Source: an uncultured Clostridia bacterium
GTDB taxonomy: Bacteria > Bacillota > Clostridia > Lachnospirales > Lachnospiraceae
Assembly (NCBI GenBank): GCA_946626755.1
Contig: CAMOUW010000002.1
Coordinates: forward strand, 3,617-67,616
Length of the DNA stretch: 64,000 nucleotides
Reading direction: 5' to 3'
In this document: positions 33,289-60,202 of the stretch, in pieces
Position numbering within the stretch: position 1 is the first letter of the stretch
Layout: each line of letters opens with the position of its first letter
Program-made: the position numbers and the translations under genes
Notes under the pieces: generated by a model
Seen by the model: only the letters and a program-made list of their open reading frames with translations
Database searches by the model: none
What the model was told of the DNA's origin: nothing

Positions 33289-33342
33289 CATTAGCCGCTG
33301 CCAACTGATATACGTATATCCATGAGTTATCCTATGCTAACT
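33289..33342. promoter_or_regulatory. Two copies of the AGTTAG-N6-CTAACT dyad in the AraC/pilus intergenic region
   Basis: cattagccgctgccaact (33289-33306) and agttatcctatgctaact (33325-33342). Confidence 0.55.
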
Positions 33343-33423
33343 ACAAAGGTAATCATATCAGAATAATTTGCGGTTGTGAAGTTTAAATTTAAAAAGGAAA
33401 CGAGGAGGCTATGAAAAGAGAGG

Positions 33424-35259
33424 ATGATGAAAAAGAAAAAGATAGCATGGAAGCGGTTCAGGGCAGGGAAGGTGTCCGCGCTTCTTCTGGCAACGGCTGT
33501 TGCTGCGGCGCCTGTAACGGGACTTGCGGCTGTAACGGCTGAAAATGTGCTTGCAGTGACAGGTTCTGAGATCGCAGAGGACGGTACATATTCTTCTGCA
33601 GTGACTGTCAGCAAGTATAAAAATGGCAAGCTGGATAAGACTTACCGGGGTACGGTTTATGTTTCCGTTGCTGACGGGAAGATTTCAAATATCAACGTCT
33701 ATGCTTCGGATAAGCAGGACAGATTTGATGAGCTTTTAAGAGGTGTGCGGTCAAGCTATATAGGACAGCCTGCTACATTGAGCGGTATAGAGGCGGCTGT
33801 AGATACTGTTTCCTCCGCTACGGCGAAGGGAAGTGCTAACACTTATTCCGAAAAATATTATGTATCAAATCTTACGGATGCGATCGAAAACGCCATAAAA
33901 GGTGCACCGGCGGCAACAACGCCGGACACAACAGGAGCAGATATCCCTGATGGTGTTTACACCGGAAGGGCAGATATGGGTAGCAATGATCATTACATTA
34001 CCCTTAATGTGACTGTTTCAAACGGGAAGATCACGGATATCGCAGTAAATGATGCCGACGGAAATTGGGATAATCTTCTGTCCCAGGTAAAGTCTTCCTA
34101 TATAGGCACAAATGCTGAGGCTGCCAATGTGGATGCGGTGACTTCGGCTACAACACAAGGGTACAGGGAAGCAATTGCCCGGGCGATAAAAAATGCCCTT
34201 GCGGGAAATCCTAATACCGGTGGCACAGGTGATGATCCGGGAGGAAACACAGGAAATTCGGGAGAAAACAGCAGTGGTACCGGGAACAGCTCGGCCGGTG
34301 ACGGATACAGCATAGTCAAAAAAATTAAAAAAGCTGCAAAAGGCGTTACGACACCTGATGCTGTGTTTACATTTACCATGACACCAAAGGACGGAGCGCC
34401 GCAGATAAGCAGTAAGACTATCAGTATAAACGAAGACAGTGACCTGTCGTCTCTTAAAGCCGGTATCGGGCTGACGTCCGAAGATCTCTCAAAGTTTACC
34501 GAAGCCGGGATTTATGAATATATCCTGACTGAGGAAACCGGCAGGCTATCTCCGACGGCAAAAGGAGACATGTCCTACAACACCGGCAACAATTCCTATC
34601 TTGTGCGTTATAAGATCTGGTACAACAACGGTGTGCTTGAACCGGCGGCGGTCACTGTTCATGAGATCAAAAACGGAACGGTATCTGACGAAAAAACGGA
34701 GATTCCTGAGTTCGAAAACTGCTACACGGTATCTTCGCAGCTTACAGTAAGTAAGTCTGTAAAAGGCGAACATGCTGATAAAAACAAAAAGTTTGAGTAC
34801 AGCGTCACATTTACAGAGGATGAGGCAAATGCGGGGTTAAATCTTACTTCAACGGCGGTGCTTAAGAAAAACGGAACCGAAGTGGCGGCAGGCACACAGC
34901 TTGATTACGGCACACAGTACACATTCAGCCTGAGTGACGGGGAGACCGTGCTTTTCACGGTACCGGCGGGGACGGATTATGAACTCATGGAGGCTGCTTC
35001 GGAAAGCTACACCCCTTCTGCAAATGTAGTGACCGATGGAAAGGCTGAAACGAAGTCGGCAGGAACAGGTGCGGCACTTACGGTACAGTCTTACATAGGT
35101 GAAAACGAGAATAAGGCCGAGTTTACCAATACCTATGAGGACAATCCTCTGACGGGGCTGGCAGGCGGTGGAGGACCTTTGTTCATACTGCTGCCTGTCG
35201 GTGCCGGAGCGATAGTACTGCTGGCTTTAGACAGGAAGAGAAGGGCAGCAAAAAAATGA
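33424..35259 (+). CDS. Sortase-anchored pilin-type protein carrying two N-terminal FMN-binding (FMN_bind, ApbE-substrate) domains
   Basis: Signal peptide, then two FMN_bind-like domains with motifs VDTVSSAT (33802-33822) and VDAVTSAT (34132-34152). A G/N/S linker follows, then Spy0128/SpaA-like isopeptide pilin domains (AVFTFTMTPKDGAP, AGIYEYILTEETG, LTVSKSVKG, FTNTY). The sorting signal is NPLTG, a TM helix and DRKRRAAKK. Confidence 0.85.
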   Translation: MMKKKKIAWKRFRAGKVSALLLATAVAAAPVTGLAAVTAENVLAVTGSEIAEDGTYSSAVTVSKYKNGKLDKTYRGTVYVSVADGKISNINVYASDKQDRFDELLRGVRSSYIGQPATLSGIEAAVDTVSSATAKGSANTYSEKYYVSNLTDAIENAIKGAPAATTPDTTGADIPDGVYTGRADMGSNDHYITLNVTVSNGKITDIAVNDADGNWDNLLSQVKSSYIGTNAEAANVDAVTSATTQGYREAIARAIKNALAGNPNTGGTGDDPGGNTGNSGENSSGTGNSSAGDGYSIVKKIKKAAKGVTTPDAVFTFTMTPKDGAPQISSKTISINEDSDLSSLKAGIGLTSEDLSKFTEAGIYEYILTEETGRLSPTAKGDMSYNTGNNSYLVRYKIWYNNGVLEPAAVTVHEIKNGTVSDEKTEIPEFENCYTVSSQLTVSKSVKGEHADKNKKFEYSVTFTEDEANAGLNLTSTAVLKKNGTEVAAGTQLDYGTQYTFSLSDGETVLFTVPAGTDYELMEAASESYTPSANVVTDGKAETKSAGTGAALTVQSYIGENENKAEFTNTYEDNPLTGLAGGGGPLFILLPVGAGAIVLLALDRKRRAAKK

Positions 35260-35291
35260 TGGATATTATAAAATAAAAGGAGATTTATTTG

Positions 35292-37457
35292 ATGAAGAAT
35301 ATATTTACTAAAGGCTTTGCGGCTGCTGTAGGTGTGATGACGGCGGCTGCGTCGGTATTTGGAATGGGTACAGCAAGCACATATGCTGCTGAAAATATAG
35401 CACATACAAAAAGTATAGAAGGAAGCGGTGATGATTATACACTTAAGCTTACCGTAACAGGTAAGGATAAGAAGGATGAAAGTACGATAACGACTACTAC
35501 AAACGGACATGCAGATATTTTGCTGGTACTGGACAGGACCGGATCCATGAGTTCATCCCTTGGAGACGGAACAAGACTGCAGGCTTTGCAGACAGCGGCT
35601 AAAAGCTTTGTATCCGGACTTAAGGATGATGAAGCTTCAAATATATCTGTTGTTACATTCGGAATGACGGACAATGAAGGCAAAACCCCTGTGGATGTGG
35701 CGCAGGGCTGGACTACCGTATCATCCGTAAGCAAGGCAAATATAAACAATATAATTAACGGAATGACGCTGCATAATCCGAACAATGCCTACAATACGAC
35801 ATATTATCCGGGTCTTTCCAAGGCAGATGAACAGCTGACACAGGTCAGCAACACCGGAAACAACAAATATGTAATATTCTTTTCCGACGGCGAGAATTCA
35901 GATTCTTCTTATGGATATAACTTAAGCGGTATGGCAACTACGGTTAAGAGCAAAGCTACCGTATTTACACTGGGCATCCCTGTGGCAGATCCCTGGGGCG
36001 GTATGTTCGGAGGTTCGGCCAGTACTGATCCTGCTGATCTGAAAAACATGGCTTCCTCTGCTGATAAGTATTATTCCATCAACGATGCAAACGCAATGAG
36101 CAACGCATTTACACAGGCACTTCAGGTGATCAAGGAAGAGACGACCATTACAAGCACTCCCATGACAAATGTGACCATAACGGATGTGTTAAGTGATTAT
36201 GTGGAACAGAACGGGGATATAACCGTTTCAGGCAACAGCGGAAAGGTTACTGCACAGTCTGTAAACGGCAAAAATATAAGTGTGACTCTTGATACGATCC
36301 CTGATGGTGAGACGGTGACGGTGTCCATACCCGTTAAGCCTTCACAGGCTGCAAAAGATGCGGCTGATGCTGCGGGTAATACGGACAGTACGTTTAAAAC
36401 CAATAAGGGTGCGACACTTAAGTTTTTCTATAAAGCACAGGAGCAGAATCTGGATTATGCCGAAGAACCGCAGATAACCCTTACCGGTACACAGCACAAC
36501 GATCCCGCAACGAAGCCTTCCGATATCAGCTTTAAGCTTTCCAAGGTTTTAGAGGTTAAGGCGGGTGATAAAACAGTACCGGATGCCACGTTTAAATTTA
36601 CGGCAGTAAGTAATGATGCAGATGCACCCGCAATAACCATAGACGATGTCACATTTACATCAGCGGATACTCTTAATTCGGAAAATAAGGTTAGTAAGGA
36701 AATAAGTTTTGCGCTTCCTGAGGCAGCTGCATTTACAAAGGCAGGTACTTATACCTATACGATCACAGAAACAGCCGATACATATACCGGGGACGGTTTC
36801 ATGACTTATGACGATGCAAGCTATACACTTACGGTGAAGGTTTGCGAAACTGCGCAGGGAATGACCTATGACGACGGTAACGGGACCCATATCGTGCTTG
36901 CAAATGCCGATGGTGACAAGGTCAGCGGACTTGAGTTTAACAATGAGTATGACAAGGATGTAGAAGAGACTACACTGGTTGTAAGTAAGACGGTTGAGGG
37001 GGATCATGCAAATAAGAATCAGGAGTTTGAGTATACGATTTCCTTTACGGATCCCGGGAATGCCAAGGATGTAAAGCCGGCAAGGGGTACGGAGAGTATA
37101 GAGTTTGGCACGGATTATACATTTAAGCTGAAGGACGGGGAGACGGCAGAGTTTTCCCTTCCCGTAGGAACAAAGTATACTATTGTGGAGACAGGTGCGG
37201 ACAGTTATGAAGCAAAAGCAGTGATCACCTGCGGTGACACACAGGATACCAAAAGCGCAGGCGTAGGAGCAGATCTGACTGTAAGTGATGTGACCGCCGT
37301 AAACGGTGTGAACAAGGCGGACTTTACCAATACTTATGTGGATAACCCATTGACAGGACTTGCTAACGGAAAAGGACCTTTGTTTATAATAATTCCCATC
37401 GCAGCAGGAGCAGTGGTTCTGCTTGCGGTAGCCAATAAGAGAAGAGCAAGAAGATAA
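35292..37457 (+). CDS. Pilus tip adhesin candidate: VWA domain followed by isopeptide pilin domains and NPLTG sorting signal
   Basis: Signal peptide, VWA/MIDAS-like ILLVLDRTGSMSS, pilin-domain motifs (ATFKFTAVSNDADAP, AGTYTYTITETAD, VVSKTVEGDHANKN, FTNTY), then NPLTG, a TM helix and KRRARR. Confidence 0.85.
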   Translation: MKNIFTKGFAAAVGVMTAAASVFGMGTASTYAAENIAHTKSIEGSGDDYTLKLTVTGKDKKDESTITTTTNGHADILLVLDRTGSMSSSLGDGTRLQALQTAAKSFVSGLKDDEASNISVVTFGMTDNEGKTPVDVAQGWTTVSSVSKANINNIINGMTLHNPNNAYNTTYYPGLSKADEQLTQVSNTGNNKYVIFFSDGENSDSSYGYNLSGMATTVKSKATVFTLGIPVADPWGGMFGGSASTDPADLKNMASSADKYYSINDANAMSNAFTQALQVIKEETTITSTPMTNVTITDVLSDYVEQNGDITVSGNSGKVTAQSVNGKNISVTLDTIPDGETVTVSIPVKPSQAAKDAADAAGNTDSTFKTNKGATLKFFYKAQEQNLDYAEEPQITLTGTQHNDPATKPSDISFKLSKVLEVKAGDKTVPDATFKFTAVSNDADAPAITIDDVTFTSADTLNSENKVSKEISFALPEAAAFTKAGTYTYTITETADTYTGDGFMTYDDASYTLTVKVCETAQGMTYDDGNGTHIVLANADGDKVSGLEFNNEYDKDVEETTLVVSKTVEGDHANKNQEFEYTISFTDPGNAKDVKPARGTESIEFGTDYTFKLKDGETAEFSLPVGTKYTIVETGADSYEAKAVITCGDTQDTKSAGVGADLTVSDVTAVNGVNKADFTNTYVDNPLTGLANGKGPLFIIIPIAAGAVVLLAVANKRRARR

Positions 37458-37478
37458 AGACACTCTTCGGAGATTGAT

Positions 37479-38351
37479 ATGATATGCAGGATATATAAAA
37501 AACAAATATATATTAAATTCTTATATGCTTTTGTTATCGGATTATTTATCATAATGTTTAATGCAACTATGACCATGGCGTCACAGGTAAAAATTCCAGT
37601 ACGGGTAAATGTGCCTGAATTCGCAACAGAAGGGGCAGTACAGCTGGTGCTTATACCAAAGAGTGAGGACTGCCCCTTGCCGTCAGGTAGTAAAGGGGGT
37701 GAGTGCAGAGTTGTGGCAGATGGTACATTTACAGGGTTTGAAATGGAGTTTTACGGTGCCGGTGATTACAGGTATGAGCTGGTTGCTGAGGCAGTTGAAG
37801 GGTTTGAGTGTCCGGTGTCACAGTATGATCTTCTTGTGCGTGTGAGGCCGGACGATACCTTTCAGGTGGCGGTCTATAACAGATCAGGTGAGAAGTGTGA
37901 GGCAGAATATACATTTACCGGTTCGCAAACAAATGTTAAGGATTTTACGGATGTTGAACCTGAGACCGGGGAAGAGAAGAAGACGGCAGATGATGTGAGA
38001 GAAAATGTTAAGAGTGATGTAACGATTGAAAAAGGTGCACAAGAAGAAAGTCCGGCAGAACAAACAATAACAGGGGACGAAACGGAACCTGCGAAACTGA
38101 AACAGACAGAAGGACAGGCAAATGTGCCGGAAATGAAAATGACAGCGGCGTCATCAGGAACGGCAGAGGGCGTTAAAGCAAAAACGGTCTCAATGGTCGC
38201 ATCGAATACCGTAAATATGCAAAAAACAGGCAGCCGTACATCCCCCGACACAGGTGATAAGGCGGATATTTACCTTCTGCAGATCGCTGCCGTATCTGCC
38301 GGAGTCCTGGTCTTTGCAGTGATGATGTATCTCAGAGGCAAAAAGGAATGA
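37479..38351 (+). CDS. Small pilin-like sortase substrate (base/minor pilin candidate) with SPDTG sorting signal
   Basis: Signal peptide and a single pilin-like Ig domain (GAGDYRYELVAEAVEG...YDLLVRV). An acidic linker is followed by SPDTG, a TM helix and RGKKE. Confidence 0.7.
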   Translation: MICRIYKKQIYIKFLYAFVIGLFIIMFNATMTMASQVKIPVRVNVPEFATEGAVQLVLIPKSEDCPLPSGSKGGECRVVADGTFTGFEMEFYGAGDYRYELVAEAVEGFECPVSQYDLLVRVRPDDTFQVAVYNRSGEKCEAEYTFTGSQTNVKDFTDVEPETGEEKKTADDVRENVKSDVTIEKGAQEESPAEQTITGDETEPAKLKQTEGQANVPEMKMTAASSGTAEGVKAKTVSMVASNTVNMQKTGSRTSPDTGDKADIYLLQIAAVSAGVLVFAVMMYLRGKKE

Positions 38352-38354
38352 TTT

Positions 38355-39212
38355 ATGAACAAAGCGGCACGAAGGATTCTTTACATTTTTGACGAAGTTA
38401 TAAATTTTATAGTTCTTGCTATCTTTGTAGTGCTTACTTTATTTTGCATTTACATTTACACAGACAGCGGGCGGCTGGAAGCGGAAGCGGACACTGCCCG
38501 CTTTGTCCAGTTTAAGCCGGTGGAAAAGGAGCATCTGACATTTACACAGTTATGTGAGAGGAATCCGGATGTGTTCGGCTGGATAAGCATAGATGATACG
38601 GGGGTGGACTATCCGCTGGTTCAGGGCAGGAATAATTCGGAATATGTAAATATGACGCCGGAGCGGACATTTTCCCTGACCGGCAGTATCTTTCTTGATT
38701 ATCGTAATAACAGGAGTCTGACGGATAAGGTATCCGTAATATACGGGCATCATATGGAAAAGGACAGGCTGTTCGGAGGCTTCGATAAGTTTGAGGATAA
38801 GACTTACTTTGTGGAGCATGAAACAGGCAGCATTGTTTTTGATGATATGATTTACGGTATCAGGATTTTTGCGTTCCTTAAGGCGGACGGTTATGATACA
38901 AGCGTATATAATCCCAGGGTTACTGAGGCAGAGTTTCCGGCGTGGAAGGAACATATCATGAGTCTTGCGCTGCAAAAGGGCGAGGTGCCGGGTGACGGTG
39001 CAAGAGTGCTTTTACTTAGTACCTGCGCAAGCATGGATACTAATCAGAGGCTGATACTTGCTGCGGAGCTTGGGGAAGGGGTACCGCTTCCGGATGAAGT
39101 ACCGGAAGGAGTTGCGATCACATGGGCGTGGCCGGTGGCGGTTGCTGTGGCAGCAGGGTGTGCTGTTGTCCTTTTGGTGATTACTATACGTAAAAAACAT
39201 AAGAGAAGATAA
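38355..39212 (+). CDS. srtB: Class B sortase (pilus-associated) with extra C-terminal TM anchor
   Basis: N-terminal TM helix, NPDVFGWISIDDTGVDYPLVQG, GSIFLDYRNN, VIYGHHM and active-site LLLSTC. C-terminal hydrophobic helix followed by RKKHKRR. Confidence 0.85.
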   Translation: MNKAARRILYIFDEVINFIVLAIFVVLTLFCIYIYTDSGRLEAEADTARFVQFKPVEKEHLTFTQLCERNPDVFGWISIDDTGVDYPLVQGRNNSEYVNMTPERTFSLTGSIFLDYRNNRSLTDKVSVIYGHHMEKDRLFGGFDKFEDKTYFVEHETGSIVFDDMIYGIRIFAFLKADGYDTSVYNPRVTEAEFPAWKEHIMSLALQKGEVPGDGARVLLLSTCASMDTNQRLILAAELGEGVPLPDEVPEGVAITWAWPVAVAVAAGCAVVLLVITIRKKHKRR

Positions 39213-39234
39213 AGAATTTACGAACAGGAGTAAT

Positions 39235-39792
39235 ATGAATATCAGAGAGTCATACAGTGCAGATATGATTGAAGAAAAAGAAAATGAGAAAAAAAAGGCC
39301 GCCACATTTACAGGTTCTCTTATCTCATTATTGGTGAAGATTGGGATAATAACCGGTGTTGTAGTTTTTATAGCTTTTTTTGTGTTGAATCTTCACACGG
39401 CTTCGGGTTTAGCCATGAGCCCGTCTGTTAAAGACAGGGATCTGGTCATCACATATCGTTTTGATAAAGATTATGCGGCAAGGGATGTAATCGTACTTGA
39501 TGTTATGGGGGAAAGGCAGGTTCGAAGAGTGGTGGCGGTAAGCGGCGATACGGTGGACGTTACATCTGAGGGTCTGCGTGTAAACGGATACCTGCAGCAG
39601 GAGCAGTATGCGCAGGGGGAGACTCTTGCTTTTGAAAGTGATGTGGAGTATCCGGTTACTTTACAGCCCGGAGAGATTTTTGTACTTGGAGACAACAGGG
39701 AAAAATCCACGGACAGCCGGGTATACGGCCCGGTGAAGGCAAGAGACACGGTAGGGAGTGTAATTGCCGTATTCAGATACCGTGATTTTTGA
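39235..39792 (+). CDS. Signal peptidase I homologue lacking the Ser/Lys catalytic dyad (SipA/LepA-like pilus assembly factor candidate)
   Basis: S26 fold motifs are retained (GDNREKSTDSRVYGPV). The SM-x-PT box reads GLAMSPSV (Ser to Ala). The KR-x-x-G-x-PGD box reads VRRVVAVSGDTV (Lys to Arg). Confidence 0.8.
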   Translation: MNIRESYSADMIEEKENEKKKAATFTGSLISLLVKIGIITGVVVFIAFFVLNLHTASGLAMSPSVKDRDLVITYRFDKDYAARDVIVLDVMGERQVRRVVAVSGDTVDVTSEGLRVNGYLQQEQYAQGETLAFESDVEYPVTLQPGEIFVLGDNREKSTDSRVYGPVKARDTVGSVIAVFRYRDF

Positions 39793-39821
39793 CTGCACGA
39801 TGAAAAAAGCTAAACGACAGC

Positions 39822-40922
39822 TTATTTTCTTACCACAGTTGTGCTGAAAGTGTCTGATGTGAAACTTTCACTGATCCCTTCCGTAACATACAGCATATCT
39901 GTATCATCCATAAGAATGGTCTCAAAATCGTTGCTATGGGATTTCCAGAAATCCAGTGCCTTGTCTCTTCCCATGACGTAAAGAGCAGTGGAGAGGGCAT
40001 CTGCCATTATCGCATCCTTACTGATCACGGTGACGGAGATAAGCCCCTTGTCAGCAGGATATCCGGTGGCAGGATCCATGATGTGATGATAGTACCTGCC
40101 GTCCTGTTTAAAGTTACGTTCATAGCCGCCGGAGGTGATCACGGCTACATCTGATGCGGTAAGTATGCCGATAAAATCCGTATTCTCATAAGGGCTGCTT
40201 ATCCCCACACGCCAGAGACTGCCGTCCGGTTTTGTGCCTAAAAGTTGTACGTTTCCGCCCAGATTTACCATACCGCTTGCAATGCCTTTATCCTTGAAAA
40301 GCTTTATAAGGGCATCTGAAGTATAGCCCTTTGCTATTCCGCCCAGATCTATTTCCATAGCTTTATTTTCAAATTCTATTTCATTCGTTTTTTTGTCAAA
40401 ACTTATTTCTGACAGATCGGTATTTTCCAAAATGTCATTTATTGTATCGGCAGAGGGGACTTTATAATTCTGAGAAATAAAGCCCCACTCTTTAAGAAGG
40501 GGATAAAGGCTTATATTAAAAGCTCCGTCGGTAAGCTGCCATGCTTCCATAGCTTGTTCCAAAAGGTGTGCGGTATCATCGTCAAGAACGGCGGTCTTCT
40601 CTTTGTTTAACTTTGATACAGCGCTGGTTTCTATTTCGGTGGACAGTCTGTTTTCTATGTCATTTACAAGAGATTCGCCTTCCTGTACGACAGCAGCCGC
40701 ATTCTCACCGTATGCAGTAAGAGTCATAAAGGTATCCATGGCAAAAAAAGCTGCCTCTGCAGGTATGGCGGAGACAGTGTTTTTTTCGTTAAGTACTGCA
40801 GTGCTTCCGGCTGCGACAGTTTCCGGAACATCCGGATTATTCTTGGCCGTACAGCCTGTGATGATCATACAACCTGTAAAAACAGGCAATGTAAATGTAA
40901 TAAAAAATCGTTTTGTATTCAT
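39822..40922 (-). CDS. apbE: FAD:protein FMN transferase (ApbE family) lipoprotein
   Basis: Lipobox (VFTGC/ITGC) followed by the ApbE motifs AMDTFMTLTAYG, IDLGGIAKGY, VNLGGNVQLLG, WRVGISSP, AVITSGGYERNF, HHIMDPATGYPA and ADALSTALYVMG. Confidence 0.9.
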   Translation of the reverse strand: MNTKRFFITFTLPVFTGCMIITGCTAKNNPDVPETVAAGSTAVLNEKNTVSAIPAEAAFFAMDTFMTLTAYGENAAAVVQEGESLVNDIENRLSTEIETSAVSKLNKEKTAVLDDDTAHLLEQAMEAWQLTDGAFNISLYPLLKEWGFISQNYKVPSADTINDILENTDLSEISFDKKTNEIEFENKAMEIDLGGIAKGYTSDALIKLFKDKGIASGMVNLGGNVQLLGTKPDGSLWRVGISSPYENTDFIGILTASDVAVITSGGYERNFKQDGRYYHHIMDPATGYPADKGLISVTVISKDAIMADALSTALYVMGRDKALDFWKSHSNDFETILMDDTDMLYVTEGISESFTSDTFSTTVVRK

Positions 40923-41092
40923 ATCTGTTCCGTTTTCCGTTTCTTTATTGTTTTCTGTAAGTATTTTAAATTAATCAAATCAATGTGTATCTTCAATGGT
41001 CTTATGTTAAGACATTTCAAAGCACCCTTCGACCACTCTTCAAGGTAGAGCTTATTAAGGGGATCTACATTGTAACTTTAATAATCTGTCTT

Positions 41093-41617
41093 TTACTGCC
41101 GGCGTTTTTTGGCGGTCGTTATCAAGAATGCATCTGACGGCAAATGCTGCATTACCGAATGTGATATAAGTCCGTTTACAAATCCGCAGACCAGACCTGA
41201 AAAGATAAGCAGCGGAAAATATCCGAAAACATTCAGATTCGACACTACAAAAGATGCAGTTATTACCTGGGCAAGATTGTGTGTTATACCCCCTGCAACG
41301 GAAACACCGATAACAGAAAACAATCCGGTTTTTTTAAGCAATGACATTACGCTCAGGCTTAAAAGGGCGCCTGTCATTGCATACATACATCCAAACATAC
41401 CGCTGAAAAGAAGACCACTGAGTAAAACACGCATAACATTTACGGCAAAGGAATATTTGGTACCTATGCAGTAGAGAGTCATGATGATAACGATATTTGC
41501 AAGTCCGAGCTTTATTCCGGGAATGCCCAGATTAAAGGGAATCAGAAATTCTATATATGAAAATATCATGGCAAGGGACGTAAGTAGTGTTGCCATAGTA
41601 AGACTCTTTGTGTTCAT
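41093..41617 (-). CDS. Gx transporter family protein (Hpre_diP_synt_I-type membrane protein)
   Basis: About 175 aa with 5 TM helices and GIPGIKLGLANIVII, typical of the family found beside ApbE and NusG-II genes. The ATG at 41617 avoids overlap with the upstream gene. Confidence 0.7.
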   Translation of the reverse strand: MNTKSLTMATLLTSLAMIFSYIEFLIPFNLGIPGIKLGLANIVIIMTLYCIGTKYSFAVNVMRVLLSGLLFSGMFGCMYAMTGALLSLSVMSLLKKTGLFSVIGVSVAGGITHNLAQVITASFVVSNLNVFGYFPLLIFSGLVCGFVNGLISHSVMQHLPSDAFLITTAKKRRQ

Positions 41618-41621
41618 TTTT

Positions 41622-41999
41622 TTAACGCGCCACTGCGTCGACCTCCTTCTCATTACCGGTTATCTCAAGCACGACTTTATGGGGCAGGCATACAATGGTC
41701 TCACCATGCTTACCTATGCTGTGTTCATGCACACAGTCAAAGCCGGGACAGTTTGCATTTACCATATCGACCCTTCCGTTCTTTATTTCAAAAGTGTTTA
41801 GATCTTCACCGTTGCTTACGGTCACAGTGGAATCAATGGATGTGTTGTAGGTTCCGTAAAGTTTTCCGTCCACCGTCACTCTGAGAGTCTGTCCTTCAGA
41901 CTTACCCAAAATAAGAACTGCCGACAACCAGATTCCTGCGACCACTATAGCCGCTATAAGTATGATATCTGCCCTTTTTATTATTTTAAACCCACTCAT
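41622..41999 (-). CDS. NusG domain II-containing membrane-anchored protein
   Basis: N-terminal TM helix, then TVDGKLYGTY...NGRVDMVNANCPGFDCVHEHSIGKHGETIVCLPHKVVLEI, which fits the NusG_II/DUF1312 pattern with its Cys pair. Confidence 0.7.
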   Translation of the reverse strand: MSGFKIIKRADIILIAAIVVAGIWLSAVLILGKSEGQTLRVTVDGKLYGTYNTSIDSTVTVSNGEDLNTFEIKNGRVDMVNANCPGFDCVHEHSIGKHGETIVCLPHKVVLEITGNEKEVDAVAR

Positions 42000-42078: not shown

Positions 42079-42120
42079 TGTTAGAGCGTGCTAACTTGAT
42101 ATAGTTTACCAATGCTAACT
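42079..42120. promoter_or_regulatory. Two copies of the AGTTAG-N6-CTAACT dyad upstream of the NusG-II/Gx/ApbE operon
   Basis: tgttagagcgtgctaact (42079-42096) and agtttaccaatgctaact (42103-42120). Confidence 0.55.
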
Positions 42121-48925: not shown

Positions 48926-48971
48926 AAATATATGCGGTTCTTGTTTTATTACAGGTATAAAAGGTGTATTT

Positions 48972-51269: not shown

Positions 51270-51395
51270 TTGACAAAGTTAGCCTTAGGCAACTATTATT
51301 TTTTGTACACCAGTTAGCATAAGACAACTGACTTGTTTTCCCGTCAACAGTATTTGGCGGGAAAAATAAAAACCCATAGTTAGCAATAACTAACT
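51270..51395 (+). promoter_or_regulatory. Promoter with three AGTTAG-N6-CTAACT dyads upstream of the MacB-type ABC operon
   Basis: TTGACA (51270-75), an 18-nt spacer and TATTAT (51294-99). The dyad agttagccttaggcaact (51277-94) fills the spacer. Further dyads are agttagcataagacaact (51312-29) and agttagcaataactaact (51378-95). The last sits inside a longer hairpin cccatagtta...taactatggg followed by tttt. Confidence 0.6.
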
Positions 51396-51466
51396 ATGGG
51401 TTTTCCGGTTGTTTCAAGAAATGTTGTCAGACAGGCTTCAAAAAAACAGCAGGAGGTATTTAAAAC

Positions 51467-52168
51467 GTGTACATAGAAGTTAAAGACCTGAAAAAAGCCT
51501 ACGGAACAGGCGAGAACCACACTCAGGTCCTAAAGGGTATCAGTACAGGTATAGAAAAAGGAAATATGTGTGTCATACAGGGGACCAGCGGATCGGGAAA
51601 GTCCACTTTTTTAAACTGTATCGGCGGTCTTGAGACAGCAGACTCGGGAATTATAAATGTTGACGGAGTGGAGATCACCGGTCTAAAAAAAGATAAGCTT
51701 TCCGAATACCGGAGGGAGAAGCTTGGTTTTATATTTCAGTTTTATAACCTTGTTCCCGATCTTACGGTTATGGAAAACATCCAGGTTTGTGAATACCTGT
51801 CAAAAGACAGGCTGGATGCGGAGGAGCTGCTTGATGTACTGGGGATGTCGGCTCATAAAAATAAGTTTCCGGCACAGCTTTCCGGTGGTCAGCAGCAAAG
51901 ATGCGCCATAGCGAGAGCCCTTGTGAAAAACCCCGAAATACTTTTGTGCGATGAGCCCACAGGCGCGCTGGATTCCAAGACATCAAAAGAAATACTGGTC
52001 TTACTGGAAAAGATAAATAAAAAATACAATACAACCATCCTTCTGGTAACTCACAACAATGCCATAAAAGATATGGTTCACCGGGTGATAGTGATAAAAG
52101 ACGGATGTATCATAAAAGATTACAAGAATGACGCTCCGGTTCCGGCAGAGCAGCTTGAAGATGTATAA
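51467..52168 (+). CDS. ABC ATP-binding protein (MacB/LolD/FtsE-like)
   Basis: GTG start, Walker A GTSGSGKST, signature LSGGQQQR and Walker B LLCDEPTGALD. Confidence 0.9.
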   Translation: MYIEVKDLKKAYGTGENHTQVLKGISTGIEKGNMCVIQGTSGSGKSTFLNCIGGLETADSGIINVDGVEITGLKKDKLSEYRREKLGFIFQFYNLVPDLTVMENIQVCEYLSKDRLDAEELLDVLGMSAHKNKFPAQLSGGQQQRCAIARALVKNPEILLCDEPTGALDSKTSKEILVLLEKINKKYNTTILLVTHNNAIKDMVHRVIVIKDGCIIKDYKNDAPVPAEQLEDV

Positions 52169-52183
52169 GAGGCGGAGGTTGAG

Positions 52184-54469
52184 ATGGGTAGGGTTCTTGA
52201 TAAAAGAATATTAAGACAGTTAAGAAAGAATTTTCTGCGTTATCTGATACTTTTTGCTCTTGTGGCAGTCAGTATGTATATGATCATCAGCATGGTATCT
52301 GCAGCTGAAACCGTAATGCTTGGATCAGAAAAGGCAAATTCCGCTAATGCAGTGGAAGACGGAGAGTTTACCACTATCGTGCCGCTTACCGGAGAAGAGA
52401 AAAAAACTCTCGGGGACAAGGGCACGGAAATAGAAGAAAGCGCAAGCACAGATATTGCCCTTGATGACGGTTCAGTGCTGCGCGCCATGAAATTAAGGGA
52501 AAAGATAAACAAAATACAGACTGACGAAGGACGATATCCGCAGGCTGATAACGAGCTGGTGCTTGAAAAAAGATATGCTTATTTGCATTCCCTTAAAACA
52601 GGAGACAGGATCACTATATCCGGGAAGGAATATACCATCAGCGGAACGGGAAGTGTTCCTGACTATGATCAGCCCTATAAAAATATATTTGATATGGTGG
52701 CCGACAGCGAGCATTTCGGTCTGATATTTCTTACAGACAGCGGGTATGAGGGCCTGACCGGTCAGGATCCTGAAAGGGTTCAGGAATATACATATTTTTA
52801 CCGGCTGGGAGATGAAAGCGACAGGGAGTTAAGAGACAGGATAAAAGAGATAAGATTCACTCCGGAAGCTTTAGCGGCGCAGACCGGGAGCCCGGGTGAA
52901 GGCATAGGAAAGCTTGAACTGTTTACGGAAAGCGAAGATAACCCGAGGATAAACGCAGCAGTCAATGACATTAAGATGAATAAAACAGTGGGGCTGTTCG
53001 CAGGAGTAGTCATGCTTATATTGCTGGCATATGTGATCTCAGTATTTGTAGGGCATCAGATAAATGCTGATAGCGGTGTTATTGGGGCGCTTTACGCTCT
53101 TGGTGTGAAAAAAAACAATATGATCAGACATTATCTGAAGCTTCCGGTGATCATCACTCTGGCAGCGGGGATAGCAGGCACGGTTTTAGGCTTCAGTCCT
53201 GTAGGGATGGATGTGCAGATGCACAGCACCTATGATTATTACTCGCTGCCTGTATTTGATAAAACTTATCCCGTATATCTCATCATTTACGGAGTAGTTG
53301 TGCCGCCGCTGATAGCTATGGCAGTAAATTTTCTTGTTTTAAATAAAAAGATGTCCGGTACGGCCCTTTCTCTTATGAGAAATGCCCAAAAACAAAAGGA
53401 AGGCAGCCGTCTTAAGCTCTCTAAGATGAAATTTATAAACAAATTCCGTATCAGGCAGATGACAAGAGAATCAAAAACTGCATTAACGGTTGTTGCGGGC
53501 ATGTTTATAGCTTTACTGATACTGATGCTGGGAGTAAACTGTCTTGTTTTTTGCAGACATGTCGAAAAGGAAAATGTTGAAGACACAAGATATGAATACA
53601 TGTACACCCTTAAGAAGCCTTTGGATAATGTGCCTGAAGGCGCGCAGGAATGTTTTGTACGATCACTTTCAAAAACAGACAGGGGCTATACGCTGGGCGT
53701 GACGCTTTTGGGGATAAAGGACGATAATACATATTTTGACGCCCGCCCCGGCAAAGGAGTAAGCAATGCCGTGGTGGGTTCGGGATTTGCGACCAAATAC
53801 AACGTAAAAGAAGGGGACATATTTACACTGACAGATTCGGCGCAGGACAGAGAATATGCTTTCCGTGTACAGGGTGTGGCTGATTATTCCGTGGGTCTTA
53901 CCGTGTTTATGGACATAGAAAGCATGAGGGAATTATTCGGACAGGACACCGGTTTTTACAACGTTTTACTGTCTGATAAAAGTCTGGATATAGACAGCGG
54001 CAGTCTTTTTTCAACACAGACAAAAAAAGATGTTGAACGGGCTTCAAAGATATTCATAAGCAAAATGACAGGCTTCTTTACGATAATGATAGTTCTTTCC
54101 GTGTTCATATTCGGAGCAGTTATGTTTTTGATGTTCAATGTAATGGTGGACAGGGCTTCCTATGGAATATCCCTGATGAAGATATTCGGATACAGGAACA
54201 GAGAAGTCAGAAAAATGTATATGTATGGAAATCTGTATCTTGTGATCGCGAGTGCCATCATATGCGTTCCTCTGGCAAAGCTTCTTATGGACATGGCATA
54301 TCCGGAGATGGTGGCCAATGTGACCTCGGGAACATTTCTGAGTATGCCTGCAGTATGGTACGGAGTGATCATTGCAGGTGTTGCGGCAGTCTGCATGGTA
54401 ATAATCGGTGTTTTAAACGGAAAACTGAGAAAGATAACGCCGGCGGTGGTTTTGAAAAACAGAGAATAA
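52184..54469 (+). CDS. FtsX/MacB-type ABC permease (761 aa, two FtsX modules)
   Basis: Has large extracytoplasmic domains and duplicated 4-TM FtsX-like segments. Confidence 0.85.
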   Translation: MGRVLDKRILRQLRKNFLRYLILFALVAVSMYMIISMVSAAETVMLGSEKANSANAVEDGEFTTIVPLTGEEKKTLGDKGTEIEESASTDIALDDGSVLRAMKLREKINKIQTDEGRYPQADNELVLEKRYAYLHSLKTGDRITISGKEYTISGTGSVPDYDQPYKNIFDMVADSEHFGLIFLTDSGYEGLTGQDPERVQEYTYFYRLGDESDRELRDRIKEIRFTPEALAAQTGSPGEGIGKLELFTESEDNPRINAAVNDIKMNKTVGLFAGVVMLILLAYVISVFVGHQINADSGVIGALYALGVKKNNMIRHYLKLPVIITLAAGIAGTVLGFSPVGMDVQMHSTYDYYSLPVFDKTYPVYLIIYGVVVPPLIAMAVNFLVLNKKMSGTALSLMRNAQKQKEGSRLKLSKMKFINKFRIRQMTRESKTALTVVAGMFIALLILMLGVNCLVFCRHVEKENVEDTRYEYMYTLKKPLDNVPEGAQECFVRSLSKTDRGYTLGVTLLGIKDDNTYFDARPGKGVSNAVVGSGFATKYNVKEGDIFTLTDSAQDREYAFRVQGVADYSVGLTVFMDIESMRELFGQDTGFYNVLLSDKSLDIDSGSLFSTQTKKDVERASKIFISKMTGFFTIMIVLSVFIFGAVMFLMFNVMVDRASYGISLMKIFGYRNREVRKMYMYGNLYLVIASAIICVPLAKLLMDMAYPEMVANVTSGTFLSMPAVWYGVIIAGVAAVCMVIIGVLNGKLRKITPAVVLKNRE

Positions 54470-56244
54470 TGGATAAAAAACATATGAATAAAATAAAAAA
54501 AGAAAAAGAGCAGGGTCTTTTATCACGTATTTTTTACTATGCCGGAAGTTATAAAAGATCATACATTTTAAGCATAATTCTTGCCACGGCGGGAGTGGCA
54601 TGCGAGATCATCCCGTTCTTTCTGACAGGCAATATTATAAATATGCTTATAGGAGGCAACAGGTTATTTGCGGCATATCTGCCTTTGTGCATCTGGATCG
54701 GTATTTTTTGGACAGGGCGTGTGATTTTTCATACCTTTTCAACCGGGGTGTCGCATAAGGCCACGTTCAAAGTGCTTGGCAATATCAGGAAAGTCATGTG
54801 TGAGAGACTGGCCAAAGCGCCCCTTGGCACGGTCTTAAATATACCTTCAGGAGAGCTGAAAAGCACAATGATAGAAAGAGTGGATTCCATGGAAACCACT
54901 CTGGCGCATATCATACCGGAGATGACTTCAAATCTTCTGGCGCCTCTTGCCATGTTTGTGATAATGCTTTTTATAGACTGGAGAATGGCGCTGGTCTCTC
55001 TGATCACATTTCCCATAGGGCTGCTTTCATTTGCGACTATGCTAAAGGATTATGGATCAAGACAGGCAAATTATGTGGAAAAAACAAAGATACTGAATGA
55101 TACGGCCGTTGAGTATATAAACGGAATAGAGGTCATAAAAGCCTTTGGCAAGTCAGAAAGCTCATATGGCAAATTTGTAAACGCAGCAAAAGAAGCCGCA
55201 TCAAGCTGCATTGACTGGATGCGGGCAAGTCTCGGAGGGATGGCAGGAAGTCTGGCGATAGCGCCATGTACCATGCTTTCGGTCCTGCCCATAGGCGGTA
55301 TATTGTTTGCATTGGGAAGCCTGACATCTGAAAAGTTTATACTGATCATCATACTTTCCGTGGGTCTGGTTACTCCGATAATAACGGTTATGAGTTACCT
55401 GGATGATTTCGCCAAGGCAAAGATAATATTTGAAGAGGTGGACGGGATAGTAAATCTGGAAGAATTAAAAAGACCTTCCGAAAGCAAAGGATTACCCGGA
55501 AAAAATGATATAAGACTTGAAAATGTGCATTTTGGCTATGGCGGAAAAGAAGGCACGGAGATCCTCCATGGTATAGATCTGTCCATACCCGAAGGGAAGA
55601 TGACTGCGATCGTAGGTCCGTCAGGGAGCGGCAAATCTACCATAACGAAGCTTATAGCATCTCTTTGGGATGTGACCGGAGGGAGTATAAAGCTTGGAGG
55701 CACAGACATAAGAGACATAGCTCTTGATGACTATAATTCACGCATTGCGTATGTTTCCCAGGATAATTATCTTTTCGATATGTCTGTACGTGAAAATATA
55801 CGCATGGGACGACCGGGCGCGACTGATGCGCAGGTAGAGGAAATTGCCCGTAAGAGCGGCTGCCATGATTTTATAATGGGGCTGGAAAAAGGATATGAAA
55901 CGATAGCGGGCGGGGCAGGAGGACATTTGTCCGGGGGTGAGCGTCAGCGTATAACCATAGCAAGAGCAATGTTTAAAGATGCTCCCATAGTTATTCTTGA
56001 TGAGGCGACTGCTTATACCGATCCTGAAAACGAGGCCCTCATACAGTCTTCAGTTGCCGGGCTCGTAAAAGGAAAGACGCTTATAGTAATAGCTCACAGG
56101 CTTTCAACGATAGCTGACGCTGACAAGATCGTTGTGGTAAATAAAGGCAGGATTGACAGCACAGGCACCCACCGGGAGCTCCTTGCAATGGGAGGACTCT
56201 ACAGATCCATGTGGGATGCCCATATGTCATCAAAGGACGGATGA
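54469..56244 (+). CDS. ABC transporter ATP-binding/permease half-transporter (exporter fold), subunit 1
   Basis: 6-TM domain plus an NBD (GPSGSGKST, LSGGERQR, VILDEATAYTD). The ATG at 54469 overlaps the preceding stop. The longer ORF starting at 54262 is rejected. Confidence 0.88.
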   Translation: MDKKHMNKIKKEKEQGLLSRIFYYAGSYKRSYILSIILATAGVACEIIPFFLTGNIINMLIGGNRLFAAYLPLCIWIGIFWTGRVIFHTFSTGVSHKATFKVLGNIRKVMCERLAKAPLGTVLNIPSGELKSTMIERVDSMETTLAHIIPEMTSNLLAPLAMFVIMLFIDWRMALVSLITFPIGLLSFATMLKDYGSRQANYVEKTKILNDTAVEYINGIEVIKAFGKSESSYGKFVNAAKEAASSCIDWMRASLGGMAGSLAIAPCTMLSVLPIGGILFALGSLTSEKFILIIILSVGLVTPIITVMSYLDDFAKAKIIFEEVDGIVNLEELKRPSESKGLPGKNDIRLENVHFGYGGKEGTEILHGIDLSIPEGKMTAIVGPSGSGKSTITKLIASLWDVTGGSIKLGGTDIRDIALDDYNSRIAYVSQDNYLFDMSVRENIRMGRPGATDAQVEEIARKSGCHDFIMGLEKGYETIAGGAGGHLSGGERQRITIARAMFKDAPIVILDEATAYTDPENEALIQSSVAGLVKGKTLIVIAHRLSTIADADKIVVVNKGRIDSTGTHRELLAMGGLYRSMWDAHMSSKDG

Positions 56245-57986
56245 GGTGGACCATGTTCAGAACGATATATAAATTTTTCGGTTTTTGTAATGAAAAGAAC
56301 AGAAAGCAATTCAAAGTGTCTGTTGTTTTGGGGGTTTTAAATGCCTTCTTTATTGCATTCAGGATCCCCGCGATAGATCTGATGCTGTCAGGTATAACGG
56401 GAGGCAATGTACATGCAGGTCATATTCTGGGGAGTCTCGGAATACTTGCTGCAAGCGTGACGGGACAGATCATCGTTTACAAAAAAATGGCCATGCTGCA
56501 GACGATAGCCGGTTATGAAACTGCTGCCGGCAAGCGTATTGAAATAGCAGAGCATATGAGATATATGCCCATGGGTTATTTTAATAAAAACAGTCTGGGA
56601 GAGATAACCTCGGTGACAACAAACACCATGGAAAACCTGGGGGATGTGGCTACAAGGGTTGTGATGCTGACATTTCAGGGAATACTTACCACTGCGCTTA
56701 TGATCGTATTTATGCTTTTCTACGACTGGCGCACCGGTCTTATATCGCTTGCGGGTTTTGGAGTGTTTTTTGCAGTTAATTCCGTTATGAGAAAGAAAAC
56801 GGCAAATATTTCCGAAACCAAGCTTGAAGATGATACACGCATGACGGAAAAGCTTCTTGAATACATACAAGGTATCACGGAAGTCAAATTCTATAATCTG
56901 ACCGGGTTTTACAGAAAAAATATAGACAGAGTCATAGAAAAAGCTTCAGAAACCAACACTGAGATGGAGAAAAAGGTAAACAGGTACTCGCCGTGGCAAA
57001 CCATCGTTACAAAGGCGACGGGAACCGTTATGAGCATTGCCGCGATAGCATTTTTCCTTGGGGGTTCCATGCCGCTTATGAACTGTATCCTTATGATCAT
57101 TTCATCATTTATGGTGTTTTCGGGTCTGGAGCAGGCGGGAAGCTTTTCCGCGCTTATGCGTATAGTGGATATTTCCGTGGATAAGGCAAATGCGGTCTTA
57201 TCCGTAAAGACTATGGATATAAATGGTGAAAATATCACTCCGGCAACTCATGATATAGAAGCGCAGGATATCACATTTGCATATGATCAAAGAAAAATAA
57301 TAGACGGAGTGAGCATTACCATACCTGAAAAGACCACAGTCGCCTTTGTGGGACCTTCCGGAAGCGGTAAAACGACGCTGTGCCATCTTCTTGCAAGATT
57401 TTGGGACGCGGACGAAGGCCGGGTCAGCCTTGACGGAAGGAATGTGAAGGACTACAGCTACGACAGTCTGATGGAAAATTTTAGTTTTGTATTTCAAAAT
57501 GTATATCTTTTTCATGACACAATAGCCAACAATATACGCTTTTCAAGACCGGAGGCTTCTATGGAGGAGGTTATCGATGCGGCCAAAAGGGCTTGCTGCC
57601 ATGATTTTATAACGGAACTTCCTAATGGGTATGAAACCGTTATCGGAGAGGGTGGAGCATCTCTTTCAGGCGGAGAAAAGCAGCGCATATCCATAGCGCG
57701 GGCGATAATGAAGGATGCCCCTGTGATCGTGCTTGATGAAGCTACTGCCAATGTGGATCCGGAAACTGAAAAGGAGCTTATGGAAGCAATAGAAGCTCTT
57801 ACGAATGAAAAAACTGTTTTCATGATAGCTCACAGATTAAAAACAGTAAGAAATGCAGATAAGATATGCGTTATAGATAAAGGGCAGATAGTGCAGCAGG
57901 GCACTCATGATGAACTTATAAGCCGGGAAGGAATCTACAGGGACTTTGTGGATCAGAGAAACAGGGCTGTAAGCTGGAAACTGTAA
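56241..57986 (+). CDS. ABC transporter ATP-binding/permease half-transporter, subunit 2
   Basis: 6-TM domain plus an NBD (GPSGSGKTT, LSGGEKQR, IVLDEATANVD). The start is 56241 (ATGA overlap) or 56253. Confidence 0.88.
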   Translation: MRWTMFRTIYKFFGFCNEKNRKQFKVSVVLGVLNAFFIAFRIPAIDLMLSGITGGNVHAGHILGSLGILAASVTGQIIVYKKMAMLQTIAGYETAAGKRIEIAEHMRYMPMGYFNKNSLGEITSVTTNTMENLGDVATRVVMLTFQGILTTALMIVFMLFYDWRTGLISLAGFGVFFAVNSVMRKKTANISETKLEDDTRMTEKLLEYIQGITEVKFYNLTGFYRKNIDRVIEKASETNTEMEKKVNRYSPWQTIVTKATGTVMSIAAIAFFLGGSMPLMNCILMIISSFMVFSGLEQAGSFSALMRIVDISVDKANAVLSVKTMDINGENITPATHDIEAQDITFAYDQRKIIDGVSITIPEKTTVAFVGPSGSGKTTLCHLLARFWDADEGRVSLDGRNVKDYSYDSLMENFSFVFQNVYLFHDTIANNIRFSRPEASMEEVIDAAKRACCHDFITELPNGYETVIGEGGASLSGGEKQRISIARAIMKDAPVIVLDEATANVDPETEKELMEAIEALTNEKTVFMIAHRLKTVRNADKICVIDKGQIVQQGTHDELISREGIYRDFVDQRNRAVSWKL

Positions 57987-58570: not shown

Positions 58571-58590
58571 TACAGGAGGTTTGTGATCTT

Positions 58591-59523: not shown

Positions 59524-59534
59524 AAGCTAATGAT

Positions 59535-59579
59535 AAAAAATTCCCCCGGGAGTAAATGCTCCCGGGGGAATTGATTTTA
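59535..59579. terminator. Bidirectional terminator between convergent genes
   Basis: aaaaaa-ttcccccgggag-taaatg-ctcccgggggaa-ttgatttt, a perfect 12-bp stem. Confidence 0.8.
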
Positions 59580-59864
59580 TGCCGCATCTGCGTATTTTTC
59601 AAGTATTTTTTTAAGAGAAGCCACGGATGCGCTCTGCACTCGTTCCACACGTGTATCCATGCCTTTTATTTCGTCAAGAGCACAGTGTACCATCTTGTGA
59701 GACATACAATTGGTGAAAAAAATCATAAGATCAGGTTCGCCGATCTTATTCTTAAGCCTTGCTACAGGCTTGATAAATGTCTTTACCTTATGCTTATATT
59801 TTTGACAGATATCCACGTACTGGCGCTCCATGCGCTCATTTCCCCCTACTATTACAATACTCAT
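59577..59864 (-). CDS. DUF2325-domain small protein
   Basis: 95 aa. MSIVIVGGNERMERQY...DLMIFFTNCMSHKM... fits the DUF2325 pattern. Confidence 0.6.
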   Translation of the reverse strand: MSIVIVGGNERMERQYVDICQKYKHKVKTFIKPVARLKNKIGEPDLMIFFTNCMSHKMVHCALDEIKGMDTRVERVQSASVASLKKILEKYADAA

Positions 59865-59894
59865 AAAAACCTCCGTTATATATAGATCAAAATA

Positions 59895-60202
59895 GATTAG
59901 CCTTAACTAACTTGCTTGAAGTCATTATAGTTAGCGTTAGGTAACTTGTCAAGTGGTTTTTGTAAAATATGCAAAATATAATATTTGTCAAAGGGCTTGA
60001 CAAATATTTCCAAATAATATAATCTTTAACCGCATGTAGTTAGCATTATCTAATTAGCGCCTTCTAACGGGGCGCTTTTAAAACTCTTTGTGGTTAGTCT
60101 ATTCTAATTAGTATGTGCTTACCTTATGCGTTTGCGTCCGCTGTTACCGGGCGCAAAAAAAATAAATGCGAGTTAGCTTCACCTAATAAGCGTGGGCTAA
60201 CA
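59895..60202. promoter_or_regulatory. Divergent promoter region with an array of at least 6-7 AGTTAG-N6-CTAACT dyads
   Basis: Sites are gattagccttaactaact (59895), agttagcgttaggtaact (59929), agttagcattatctaatt (60038), aattagcgccttctaacg (60052), ggttagtctattctaatt (60092) and agttagcttcacctaata (60171), plus a half-site at 60185-60202. The palindrome tttgtcaa-aggg-c-ttgacaaa (59985-60005) supplies TTGACA boxes on both strands. Confidence 0.65.

Follow-up and report, generated by a model that had tools for sequence, protein, structure and literature searches.

Several operators of metal-dependent repressors of the DtxR/MntR family have been described. In crystal structures of IdeR bound to DNA, every CCTAA repeat of TTAGGTTAGSCTAACCTAA is recognised by one subunit, and repeats 1 and 3 belong to the same dimer; an engineered half box is bound by a lone IdeR dimer with similar affinity (PMC8464063). 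Enterobacterial MntR recognises the box AACATAGCnnnnGCTATGTT (PMC1698941), and the MntR dimer of B. subtilis covers an 18-base-pair (bp) site of two 9-bp inverted repeats and can form arrays (PMC11882963). The iron-responsive TroR of Haloferax binds TTTAGGC-NNN-CCTAAA in tandem motifs about 30 bp apart (PMC10783522). Here, we describe an 18-bp dyad, AGTTAG-N6-CTAACT, in a 64-kb stretch of DNA from an uncultured Clostridia bacterium of the Lachnospiraceae (GenBank assembly GCA_946626755.1, contig CAMOUW010000002.1, positions 3,617 to 67,616; called the window below). The dyad precedes a pilus operon, an ApbE flavin transferase operon, an ATP-binding cassette (ABC) operon, and the divergent DUF2325 and FTR1/P19 genes. 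Judged from the motifs, it shares its core, its spacing and the habit of occurring in pairs with the IdeR, MntR and TroR sites.

The window was searched for AGTTAGNNNNNNCTAACT with up to two mismatches, and 100 dinucleotide-preserving shuffles served as the background. The search yielded 12 matches against 2.17 expected (standard deviation 1.38, maximum 5), and none of the 100 shuffles reached 12. All 12 copies (the dyads of Table 1 other than those at 33289, 60106 and 60185) are intergenic and fall into four regions at 33.3, 42.1, 51.3 and 59.9–60.2 kb, to which an initial annotation of this DNA had already confined the dyad. With three mismatches allowed, the count of 21 showed no excess over the 25 expected by chance; the signal is therefore carried by the better copies. 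We used those copies that have at most two mismatches or are conserved in relatives. The copy at 33289 was counted as real because the relative L051 keeps it at the same place (loci from other genomes carry L numbers). Overlapping pairs in the window occur at an offset of 14 bp only. The second members of these 'double dyads', at 60052 (two mismatches), 60106 (three mismatches) and 60185, are not conserved in the closest relative, L009, and are doubtful as true sites. Thus, the coordinates and sequences in the copy list of the initial annotation stood, as did its copies at up to two mismatches and the one at 33289, whereas 60052 and a half-site at 60185 became doubtful. The consensus of 73 non-redundant sites was A-G-T-T-A-G, N6, C-T-A-A-C-T; the fuller form is AGTTAGC-N4-GCTAACT, with the core TTAG-N6-CTAA.

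A scan with the FTR1 protein, taking one genome per species, identified 22 loci in Lachnospiraceae of the rumen and gut, in Eubacterium, in other Clostridia and other Bacillota, and in Coriobacteriia/Eggerthellaceae (about 60% G+C). In 20 of these 22 species-level loci, the 400 bp preceding FTR1 contained a dyad with at most two mismatches; of randomly drawn 400-bp windows in these loci, 4.6% did. Over the window and the FTR1 loci together (419 kb, 87% coding), 60 matches were intergenic and 2 coding. In the alignment with L009, both DUF2325 dyads and the first member of each 'double' in the FTR1 leader were conserved. The dyad is a genuine, conserved cis-regulatory element.

Outside the window, the dyad also precedes other genes. 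In L008 and L029, dyads lie in front of feoA/feoB. The close relative L051 has two of them, at 3687 and 3721, before a DUF3793–flavodoxin gene pair (region 2644-3740), which fits an iron-sparing swap of ferredoxin for flavodoxin. Pairs of ABC genes with an exporter fold are preceded by dyads in L007 and L051, and a DUF6110/P-type ATPase unit adjoining a ZIP gene in L007. Two departures from the usual layout were observed upstream of FTR1. The leader in L010 (3948-4130) contains some eight copies of CTAACT in direct orientation, repeated every 20 bp (unit CTAACTnnAGAATGATAnnn), which could be an array of adjoining dimer sites with one good half-site each, by analogy with the MntR arrays at mneP. 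The Coriobacteriia carry an everted pair, GCACACCTAACT-N7-AGTTAGGTGTGC, together with AGTTAGTCAGGTCGAACTAACT, which can be read as two dyads offset by 4 bp, an arrangement unlike that of Lachnospiraceae (L014 4269-4346, L016 406-483, L018 1292-1369). Some between-species differences in this long palindrome keep G-U pairing.

The promoter scan placed three of the window's dyads inside core promoters: those at 51277 and 59929 occupy the −35/−10 spacer, and that at 42103 lies over the −10 box. The spacer position of 51277, between TTGACA and TATTAT, agrees with the first description of this copy. Each core-promoter dyad has a second dyad 24–36 bp downstream, at about +1 to +24. The layout recurs elsewhere: L007 has a dyad within the spacer, L002 and L003 have one across the −10 box, and in L012 and L041 it comes immediately downstream of that box. 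The likely FTR1 promoter was missed by the scan because of its spacer length and was read by eye; its −35 box and spacing are conserved in L009. The pilus region gave no good sigma-70 match in the scan, and such a weak promoter would suit an operon that depends on an activator. A MerR-type mode of activation, with the protein bound in the spacer, was rejected, because the spacers measure 17–18 bp, not 19–20 bp.

The geometry of the dyad agrees with DtxR/MntR operators: the half-sites are spaced for one winged-helix dimer, at about 18 bp, and the sites overlap promoters of metal-uptake genes (FTR1/P19, feoAB). The initial annotation had noted DtxR-like half-sites but held that the spacing differed from that of DtxR/IdeR. 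The latter point was not borne out, since TTAG-N6-CTAA equals the span of one IdeR/DtxR dimer (PMC8464063). Its proposal of a repressor operator for a metal-responsive regulator gained support from the promoter overlap and from the conservation upstream of FTR1.

A candidate regulator came from the FTR1 loci. L012 encodes a 127-aa protein with Fe_dep_repress and Fe_dep_repr_C domains, divergent from FTR1 and with a dyad between the two genes. Its relative in L015 (Eggerthellaceae) has 129 aa and 39% identity to it, and is encoded divergently to a DUF6110 gene with three upstream dyads; in L013 a DtxR-family gene lies 3.8 kb from FTR1. The L012-type regulator has thousands of relatives, and the family is very widespread in Lachnospiraceae; the best 120 are 74–96% identical and come from Lachnospiraceae, Eubacterium and other Eubacteriales. 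Across these best 120 matches, 8 of the 12 positions of the recognition helix F-K-K-S-S-V-S-(V/I)-A-M-K-N are invariant, as are Cys102, Glu105 and His106. The invariant Cys would align with DtxR Cys102, where MntR has Glu99. A Cys at this position hints at Fe(II) sensing and serves as a lead rather than a test. Upstream of the DtxR-family genes of Eggerthellaceae, we also observed a conserved leader-like element, ggcggtgaagattcctctcgtctgatcgttcaccgc (L055 4760-4800, L059, and L015 at about 20290-20330), to which no Rfam family matched.

We consider it likely that the dyads are operators of a two-domain, metal-dependent DtxR/MntR-family repressor, most likely responsive to Fe(II) and encoded outside the window, an assignment drawn from sequence comparison. 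We infer the identity of the binding protein, the repression and the iron signal. One short two-domain dimer would occupy each 18-bp site. With sufficient metal, most likely Fe(II), the loaded dimer would bind the core-promoter site in the spacer or over the −10 box, and also the second site about 24–36 bp downstream, at roughly +6 to +23; dimers at both sites would block RNA polymerase. When iron is scarce, the repressor would leave, and FTR1/P19, the FtsX/ABC transporters, DUF2325, the ApbE operon and the pilus with its flavin mononucleotide (FMN)-binding pilin would be transcribed together. Feo, FTR1/P19 and flavodoxin form the classic iron-starvation set. Since the regulon holds all of these, iron is the most likely signal and manganese the main alternative.

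Several observations weigh against this reading. The 64-kb window holds no DtxR-family gene, and the regulator gene usually lies far from any dyad. The link between protein and motif therefore rests on the geometry and on two or three adjacencies. No sign of autoregulation was found: seven homologue loci, representing 15, showed no dyad at the regulator's own promoter, and the dyads in them were found only by neighbouring feoAB genes or FTR1. The candidate scored best against Mn-sensing MntR models and structures, and it has Asn or Asp where DtxR has Met10; together these leave room for Mn(II) sensing. A Fur-family gene lies 19 bp downstream of a dyad in L005. Three operators across the 200-nt FTR1 leader would be unusual for a simple repressor. 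Finally, the pilus operon has a weak promoter, the dyads of which degenerate in the more distant pilin loci.

Table 1. Dyads, promoters, genes and other elements of the window, with positions counted from its first letter.
Feature	Position	Strand	Remarks
Dyad CATTAGCCGCTGCCAACT, three mismatches	33289..33306		Upstream of pilus operon; kept as CATTAGCTGCGGCTAACT at the same place in L051
Dyad AGTTATCCTATGCTAACT	33325..33342		36 bp 3' of the first pilus-operon dyad; conserved in L051, L052
Dyad	42079..42096		About +1 to +18 of the NusG_II/Hpre_diP_synt_I/ApbE operon promoter (minus strand)
Dyad	42103..42120		Overlaps −10 box TAAACT of minus-strand promoter 42131-42103
Dyad	51277..51294		Fills 18-bp spacer of TTGACA(51270)-TATTAT(51299)
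Dyad	51312..51329		About +7 to +24 of ABC-operon promoter 51270..51299
Perfect dyad AGTTAGCAATAACTAACT	51378..51395		Within terminator-like hairpin 51369-51404
Dyad	59895..59912		About +6 to +23 of DUF2325 promoter (minus strand); conserved in L009
Dyad	59929..59946		17-bp spacer of minus-strand TTGACA(59952)-TATAAT(59924); conserved in L009
Dyad, first of FTR1 leader	60038..60055		Just 3' of likely FTR1 promoter; conserved in L009
Dyad, second of FTR1 leader	60092..60109		Conserved in L009
Dyad, third of FTR1 leader	60171..60188		46 bp 5' of FTR1 start codon; conserved in L009
Doubtful overlapping dyads	60052..60069, 60106-60123, 60185-60202		Second members of 'double dyads'; not conserved in L009
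Promoter, ABC operon	51270..51299	+	Sigma-70 type; 11 of 12 matches, 18-bp spacer
Promoter, DUF2325 gene	59924..59952	-	Consensus; 12 of 12 matches
Promoter, ApbE operon	42103..42131	-	TTGACA-17-TAAACT, TG 5' of −10 box
Likely FTR1 promoter	59997..60025	+	TTGACA, then TATAAT after 15 bp or TAATCT after 17 bp
AraC-family regulator	32187..33215	-	Divergent from FMN-pilin operon
Operon 1, pilus	33424..39792	+	Pilin with two FMN-binding domains, VWA tip pilin, 290-aa protein, sortase, signal peptidase
Operon 2	39822..41999	-	NusG_II-domain protein, Hpre_diP_synt_I membrane protein, ApbE flavin transferase
Operon 3	51467..57986	+	ABC ATPase, FtsX permease, two ABC_membrane proteins with exporter-type fold
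Gene 4a, DUF2325 protein	59577..59864	-	Identified with Pfam
Operon 4b	60234..62809	+	FTR1-family permease, P19 (Iron_transport)
Direct repeats TTCGGATAA (CGGATAA) and AACGGCTAA (CGGCTAA)	33240-33269		21 bp apart, beside AraC gene start
Second palindrome ATATTTGTCAA-agggc-TTGACAAATAT	59980-60006		Overlaps −35 box of likely FTR1 promoter
GC hairpin of FTR1 leader	60056-60076		AGCGCC...GGCGCT; overlapped by the doubtful dyad 60052..60069
GC hairpin of FTR1 leader	60131-60157		TTTGCGTCCG...CGGGCGCAAA, then A8
FMN riboswitch	3343-3460		Rfam, 109 bits; upstream of gene run 3576-7331

The alternative that has to be weighed most carefully is that the operator architecture is the same and the protein responds to Mn(II), to a different metal or to a redox signal; the regulon would then be one for manganese or for mixed metals. 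Among solved structures and NCBIfam models, those of MntR come closest, and relatives of the candidate are labelled 'Mn-dependent' by JGI. Dyads adjoin a ZIP transporter gene and precede DUF6110/P-type ATPase genes (L007, L015), and the L010 array with its 20-bp period recalls the multi-dimer arrays of B. subtilis MntR. However, the regulon is of the iron-starvation type (FTR1/P19, feoAB, flavodoxin), the family stays below the MntR equivalog cut-offs (83 against 153 bits), and the invariant Cys would take the place of MntR Glu99. We regard this alternative as rather unlikely.

A regulator of another family, either a Fur-family protein as in L005 or one of the Rrf2, MarR or ArsR type, seems improbable as the binder of the dyad. 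Fur is the usual iron regulator in Firmicutes, and the position of the Fur-family gene in L005, together with the usual separation of the DtxR-family gene from the dyads, would speak for such a protein. Yet no Fur-type box (7-1-7, TGATAATnATTATCA type, or GATAAT array) with up to three mismatches was found in the four regions, and one occurred upstream of FTR1 in only 1 of the 22 regions at the same threshold. The dyad itself has no 7-1-7 or GATAAT-hexamer character, and a Fur, PerR or Zur box was rejected as its identity. Its core and spacing equal those of three independently defined DtxR-family motifs, and the single Fur adjacency stands against three co-localisations with DtxR-family genes. 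LytTR- or AgrA-like direct repeats (AGTT core, 20-bp array of L010) were likewise rejected, as nearly all sites are inverted repeats.

The initial annotation had also considered a role of the copies as RNA hairpins within 5' leaders. Such hairpins could be attenuators or stem-loops to which a protein binds. Several copies indeed lie downstream of likely promoters, and the FTR1 leader folds better than its shuffles (z = −2.35). The copy at 51378 is, as had been noted, embedded in a longer hairpin followed by a T-run: the 15-pair hairpin passed the terminator-like scan, which requires a T-rich tail. It is the only copy with a terminator-like context, and the long stem around it is specific to this genome, as the same 18-mer stands in L051 (14055) with no such stem. 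No fewer than three copies fall within promoter spacers or across a −10 box, upstream of the expected transcript starts. The same hexamers occur inverted, everted (Coriobacteriia) and direct (L010). The substitution pattern also argues against RNA hairpins. At the six arm pairs of the 73 sites, we counted 100 one-sided departures from the consensus and 6 two-sided ones, of which 3 stay complementary. Compensatory doubles would be admitted by the two-mismatch threshold, and yet they are rare, indicating that the sequence is conserved rather than the pairing. An Rfam scan of the whole window gave no match in the four dyad regions and returned only the FMN riboswitch. A structured RNA leader or intrinsic terminator was therefore rejected as the general explanation, and a role of the copies as RNA hairpins is very improbable.

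Binding of the dyad by the neighbouring AraC-family regulator or by DUF2325 is hardly to be expected: each of the five pilin loci has an AraC gene divergent from its pilus operon, and in L005 and L011 FTR1 is preceded by AraC-type genes, but these genes near FTR1 share only the generic helix-turn-helix region with the window's AraC, most dyad-bearing loci lack a nearby AraC gene, the separate conserved direct repeats of the pilus region suit AraC better, and DUF2325 has no recognisable DNA-binding domain.

The FTR1 leader and its surroundings contain further elements. The second palindrome (Table 1) is not shared by L009. Between the three dyads of the leader lie two GC hairpins; L009 has both at the corresponding places, with other loops, and neither qualifies clearly as a terminator. 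On the opposite strand, the DUF2325 gene has the strongest promoter and operator pair of the window. A Campylobacter homologue, Cj1384c, is PerR-regulated and was the most strongly induced gene under photo-oxidative stress (PMC9426514).

The identities of the target genes were checked with Pfam, and the names given initially (AraC, pilins, sortase, ApbE, FtsX/ABC, DUF2325, FTR1, P19) agreed with the result. The pilus operon contains two FctA/DUF7601 pilins, one with a VWA domain. The 611-aa major pilin (33424-35259) has a signal peptide and a sorting region, and ApbE is encoded 4.6 kb away. Its N-terminal part matches FMN_bind (PF04205) in two stretches, with a score of 33.3 bits where 22 is the cut-off, and carries DTVSSAT and DAVTSAT, which resemble [S/T]GA[S/T] with Ser replacing Gly. 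The pilin thus has the features of an ApbE-flavinylated FMN-binding domain and is predicted to be flavinylated. Owing to the FMN_bind match and the two motifs, a flavinylated pilus is plausible. The FMN riboswitch of Table 1 precedes a gene run that, from the protein N-termini read without a domain search, we take to be a riboflavin biosynthesis operon. With the riboswitch on this run, flavin supply and flavin-using surface proteins share the window under different controls.

A metagenome scan with the window's ApbE gave 12 loci. The dyad lies directly upstream of ApbE in three lineages (L040; L041-43; L049), whose ApbE proteins are 43–47% identical to that of the window; the remaining loci of the scan had no dyad. 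In L041, the ApbE dyad lies 5 bp after a consensus TTGACA/TATAAT promoter. The same locus (6977-8781) has this ApbE as a monocistronic, dyad-controlled gene, followed by a second dyad 5' of a secreted choline-binding-repeat protein with the flavinylation-like motif DGISSAT, which may be another type of iron-regulated surface flavoprotein.

For the pilin, four homologue loci were found, with pilin identities of 87% (L051), 70% (L052), 62% (L053) and 58% (L054). Both pilus-operon dyads are kept in L051 and one in L052; in L053 and L054 they are degenerate. Membership of the pilus in the regulon holds only in closer relatives. Of the single regulon proposed initially for the pilus, ApbE, ABC and FTR1/P19 units, the ApbE part thus gained support from dyads in unrelated lineages, and the pilus part was narrowed. 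The direct repeats beside the AraC gene start are shared by the window and all four homologue loci and are probably what the AraC protein itself binds. The AraC regulator probably adds a local second control to the pilus operon rather than binding the dyad.

A link between extracytosolic flavinylation and P19/FTR1 iron assimilation has been published, and the set of genes found here agrees with it, as first suggested. In B. breve, a cluster of FTR1-family, FtsX and FMN-binding proteins, together with apbE, is needed for growth under iron chelation (PMC5449479). Comparative genomics has tied FMN-binding proteins to P19 clusters (Méheust et al. 2021, PMC8238504); neither pili nor sortase is mentioned in that survey. 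Our full-text literature searches turned up neither this regulon nor this motif for Lachnospiraceae or related anaerobes of gut and rumen, and no described DtxR regulon in Lachnospiraceae or linked to P19/FTR1.

It is possible, and we propose it tentatively, that iron starvation turns on a sortase-assembled pilus of flavinylated FMN-pilins along with the ApbE that loads the flavin, and that extracellular Fe(III) reduction by this pilus feeds FTR1/P19. ApbE would then be switched on with two membrane partners to load the pilin flavin. The pilus would be an extracellular polymer of redox-active flavoproteins, reducing Fe(III) at a distance and supplying Fe(II) to FTR1/P19. It would amount to a flavin-based Gram-positive counterpart of conductive pili, devoted to iron assimilation, not respiration. 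The shared operator ties ApbE and FMN-binding proteins to FTR1/P19, a connection earlier proposed from gene clustering alone, and the regulon points to the FMN-domain pilin as an iron-regulated surface structure of an undescribed pilus type. More generally, the dyad gives the abundant gut and rumen Lachnospiraceae and their relatives an iron box that can be tested, along with a candidate for a global regulator. The dyad appears to reach the Coriobacteriia as well and can be used directly for annotating iron regulons in metagenome-assembled genomes.

Compared with the known systems, the operator itself is of an already known type. The actinobacterial IdeR/DtxR iron box (19 bp) has the same TTAG/CTAA half-site core within its CCTAA repeat and the same half-site distance per dimer (repeats 1 and 3), and in both cases promoters of iron-uptake genes are overlapped. 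That box contains two interleaved dimer sites with a 5-bp offset, whereas the sites described here are single 18-bp dyads, alone or paired 24–36 bp apart. The classical double-dimer box with four CCTAA repeats was rejected: the window's sites are single dyads, and in its only overlapping pairs, offset by 14 bp, the second members are not conserved. The candidate regulator also lacks the SH3-like third domain, is distant from IdeR (E about 1e-7) and has Asn at DtxR Met10. The MntR systems of enterobacteria and B. subtilis show the same xTAGC-N4-GCTAx layout, with two 9-bp inverted repeats in 18 bp, one two-domain dimer and possible arrays, and the solved structure closest to the candidate is that of E. 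coli MntR (2H09). They differ in the half-site (CATAG against GTTAG here), in the regulon (mntH/mntABC against the iron type here) and in Glu99, which is Cys in the candidate; the latter also falls below the MntR equivalog cut-offs. The TroR of Haloferax volcanii, an iron-responsive DtxR-family repressor of iron uptake, has an identical TTAG-N6-CTAA core, and either of its tandem motifs about 30 bp apart is enough for repression (PMC10783522). It differs in being archaeal, with another promoter type, sites about 100 nt upstream of the start codons and other flanking bases.

The more interesting part is the regulon, which joins ApbE, the FMN-pilin and FTR1/P19. The P19/FTR1 clusters of Méheust et al. 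(2021) and bfeUO-sifABCDE of B. breve have the same FTR1, P19, FtsX/ABC and FMN-binding proteins and the same dependence on ApbE. The upstream motif proposed for B. breve bfeUO, AAAATCAAGACTGTTGTT, differs from the dyad (PMC5449479). Those studies defined gene clusters rather than a shared cis element, whereas in the window the parts are spread over 27 kb and joined by the operator, and, unlike in either of those systems, the FMN-binding domains are carried by a sortase-type pilin.

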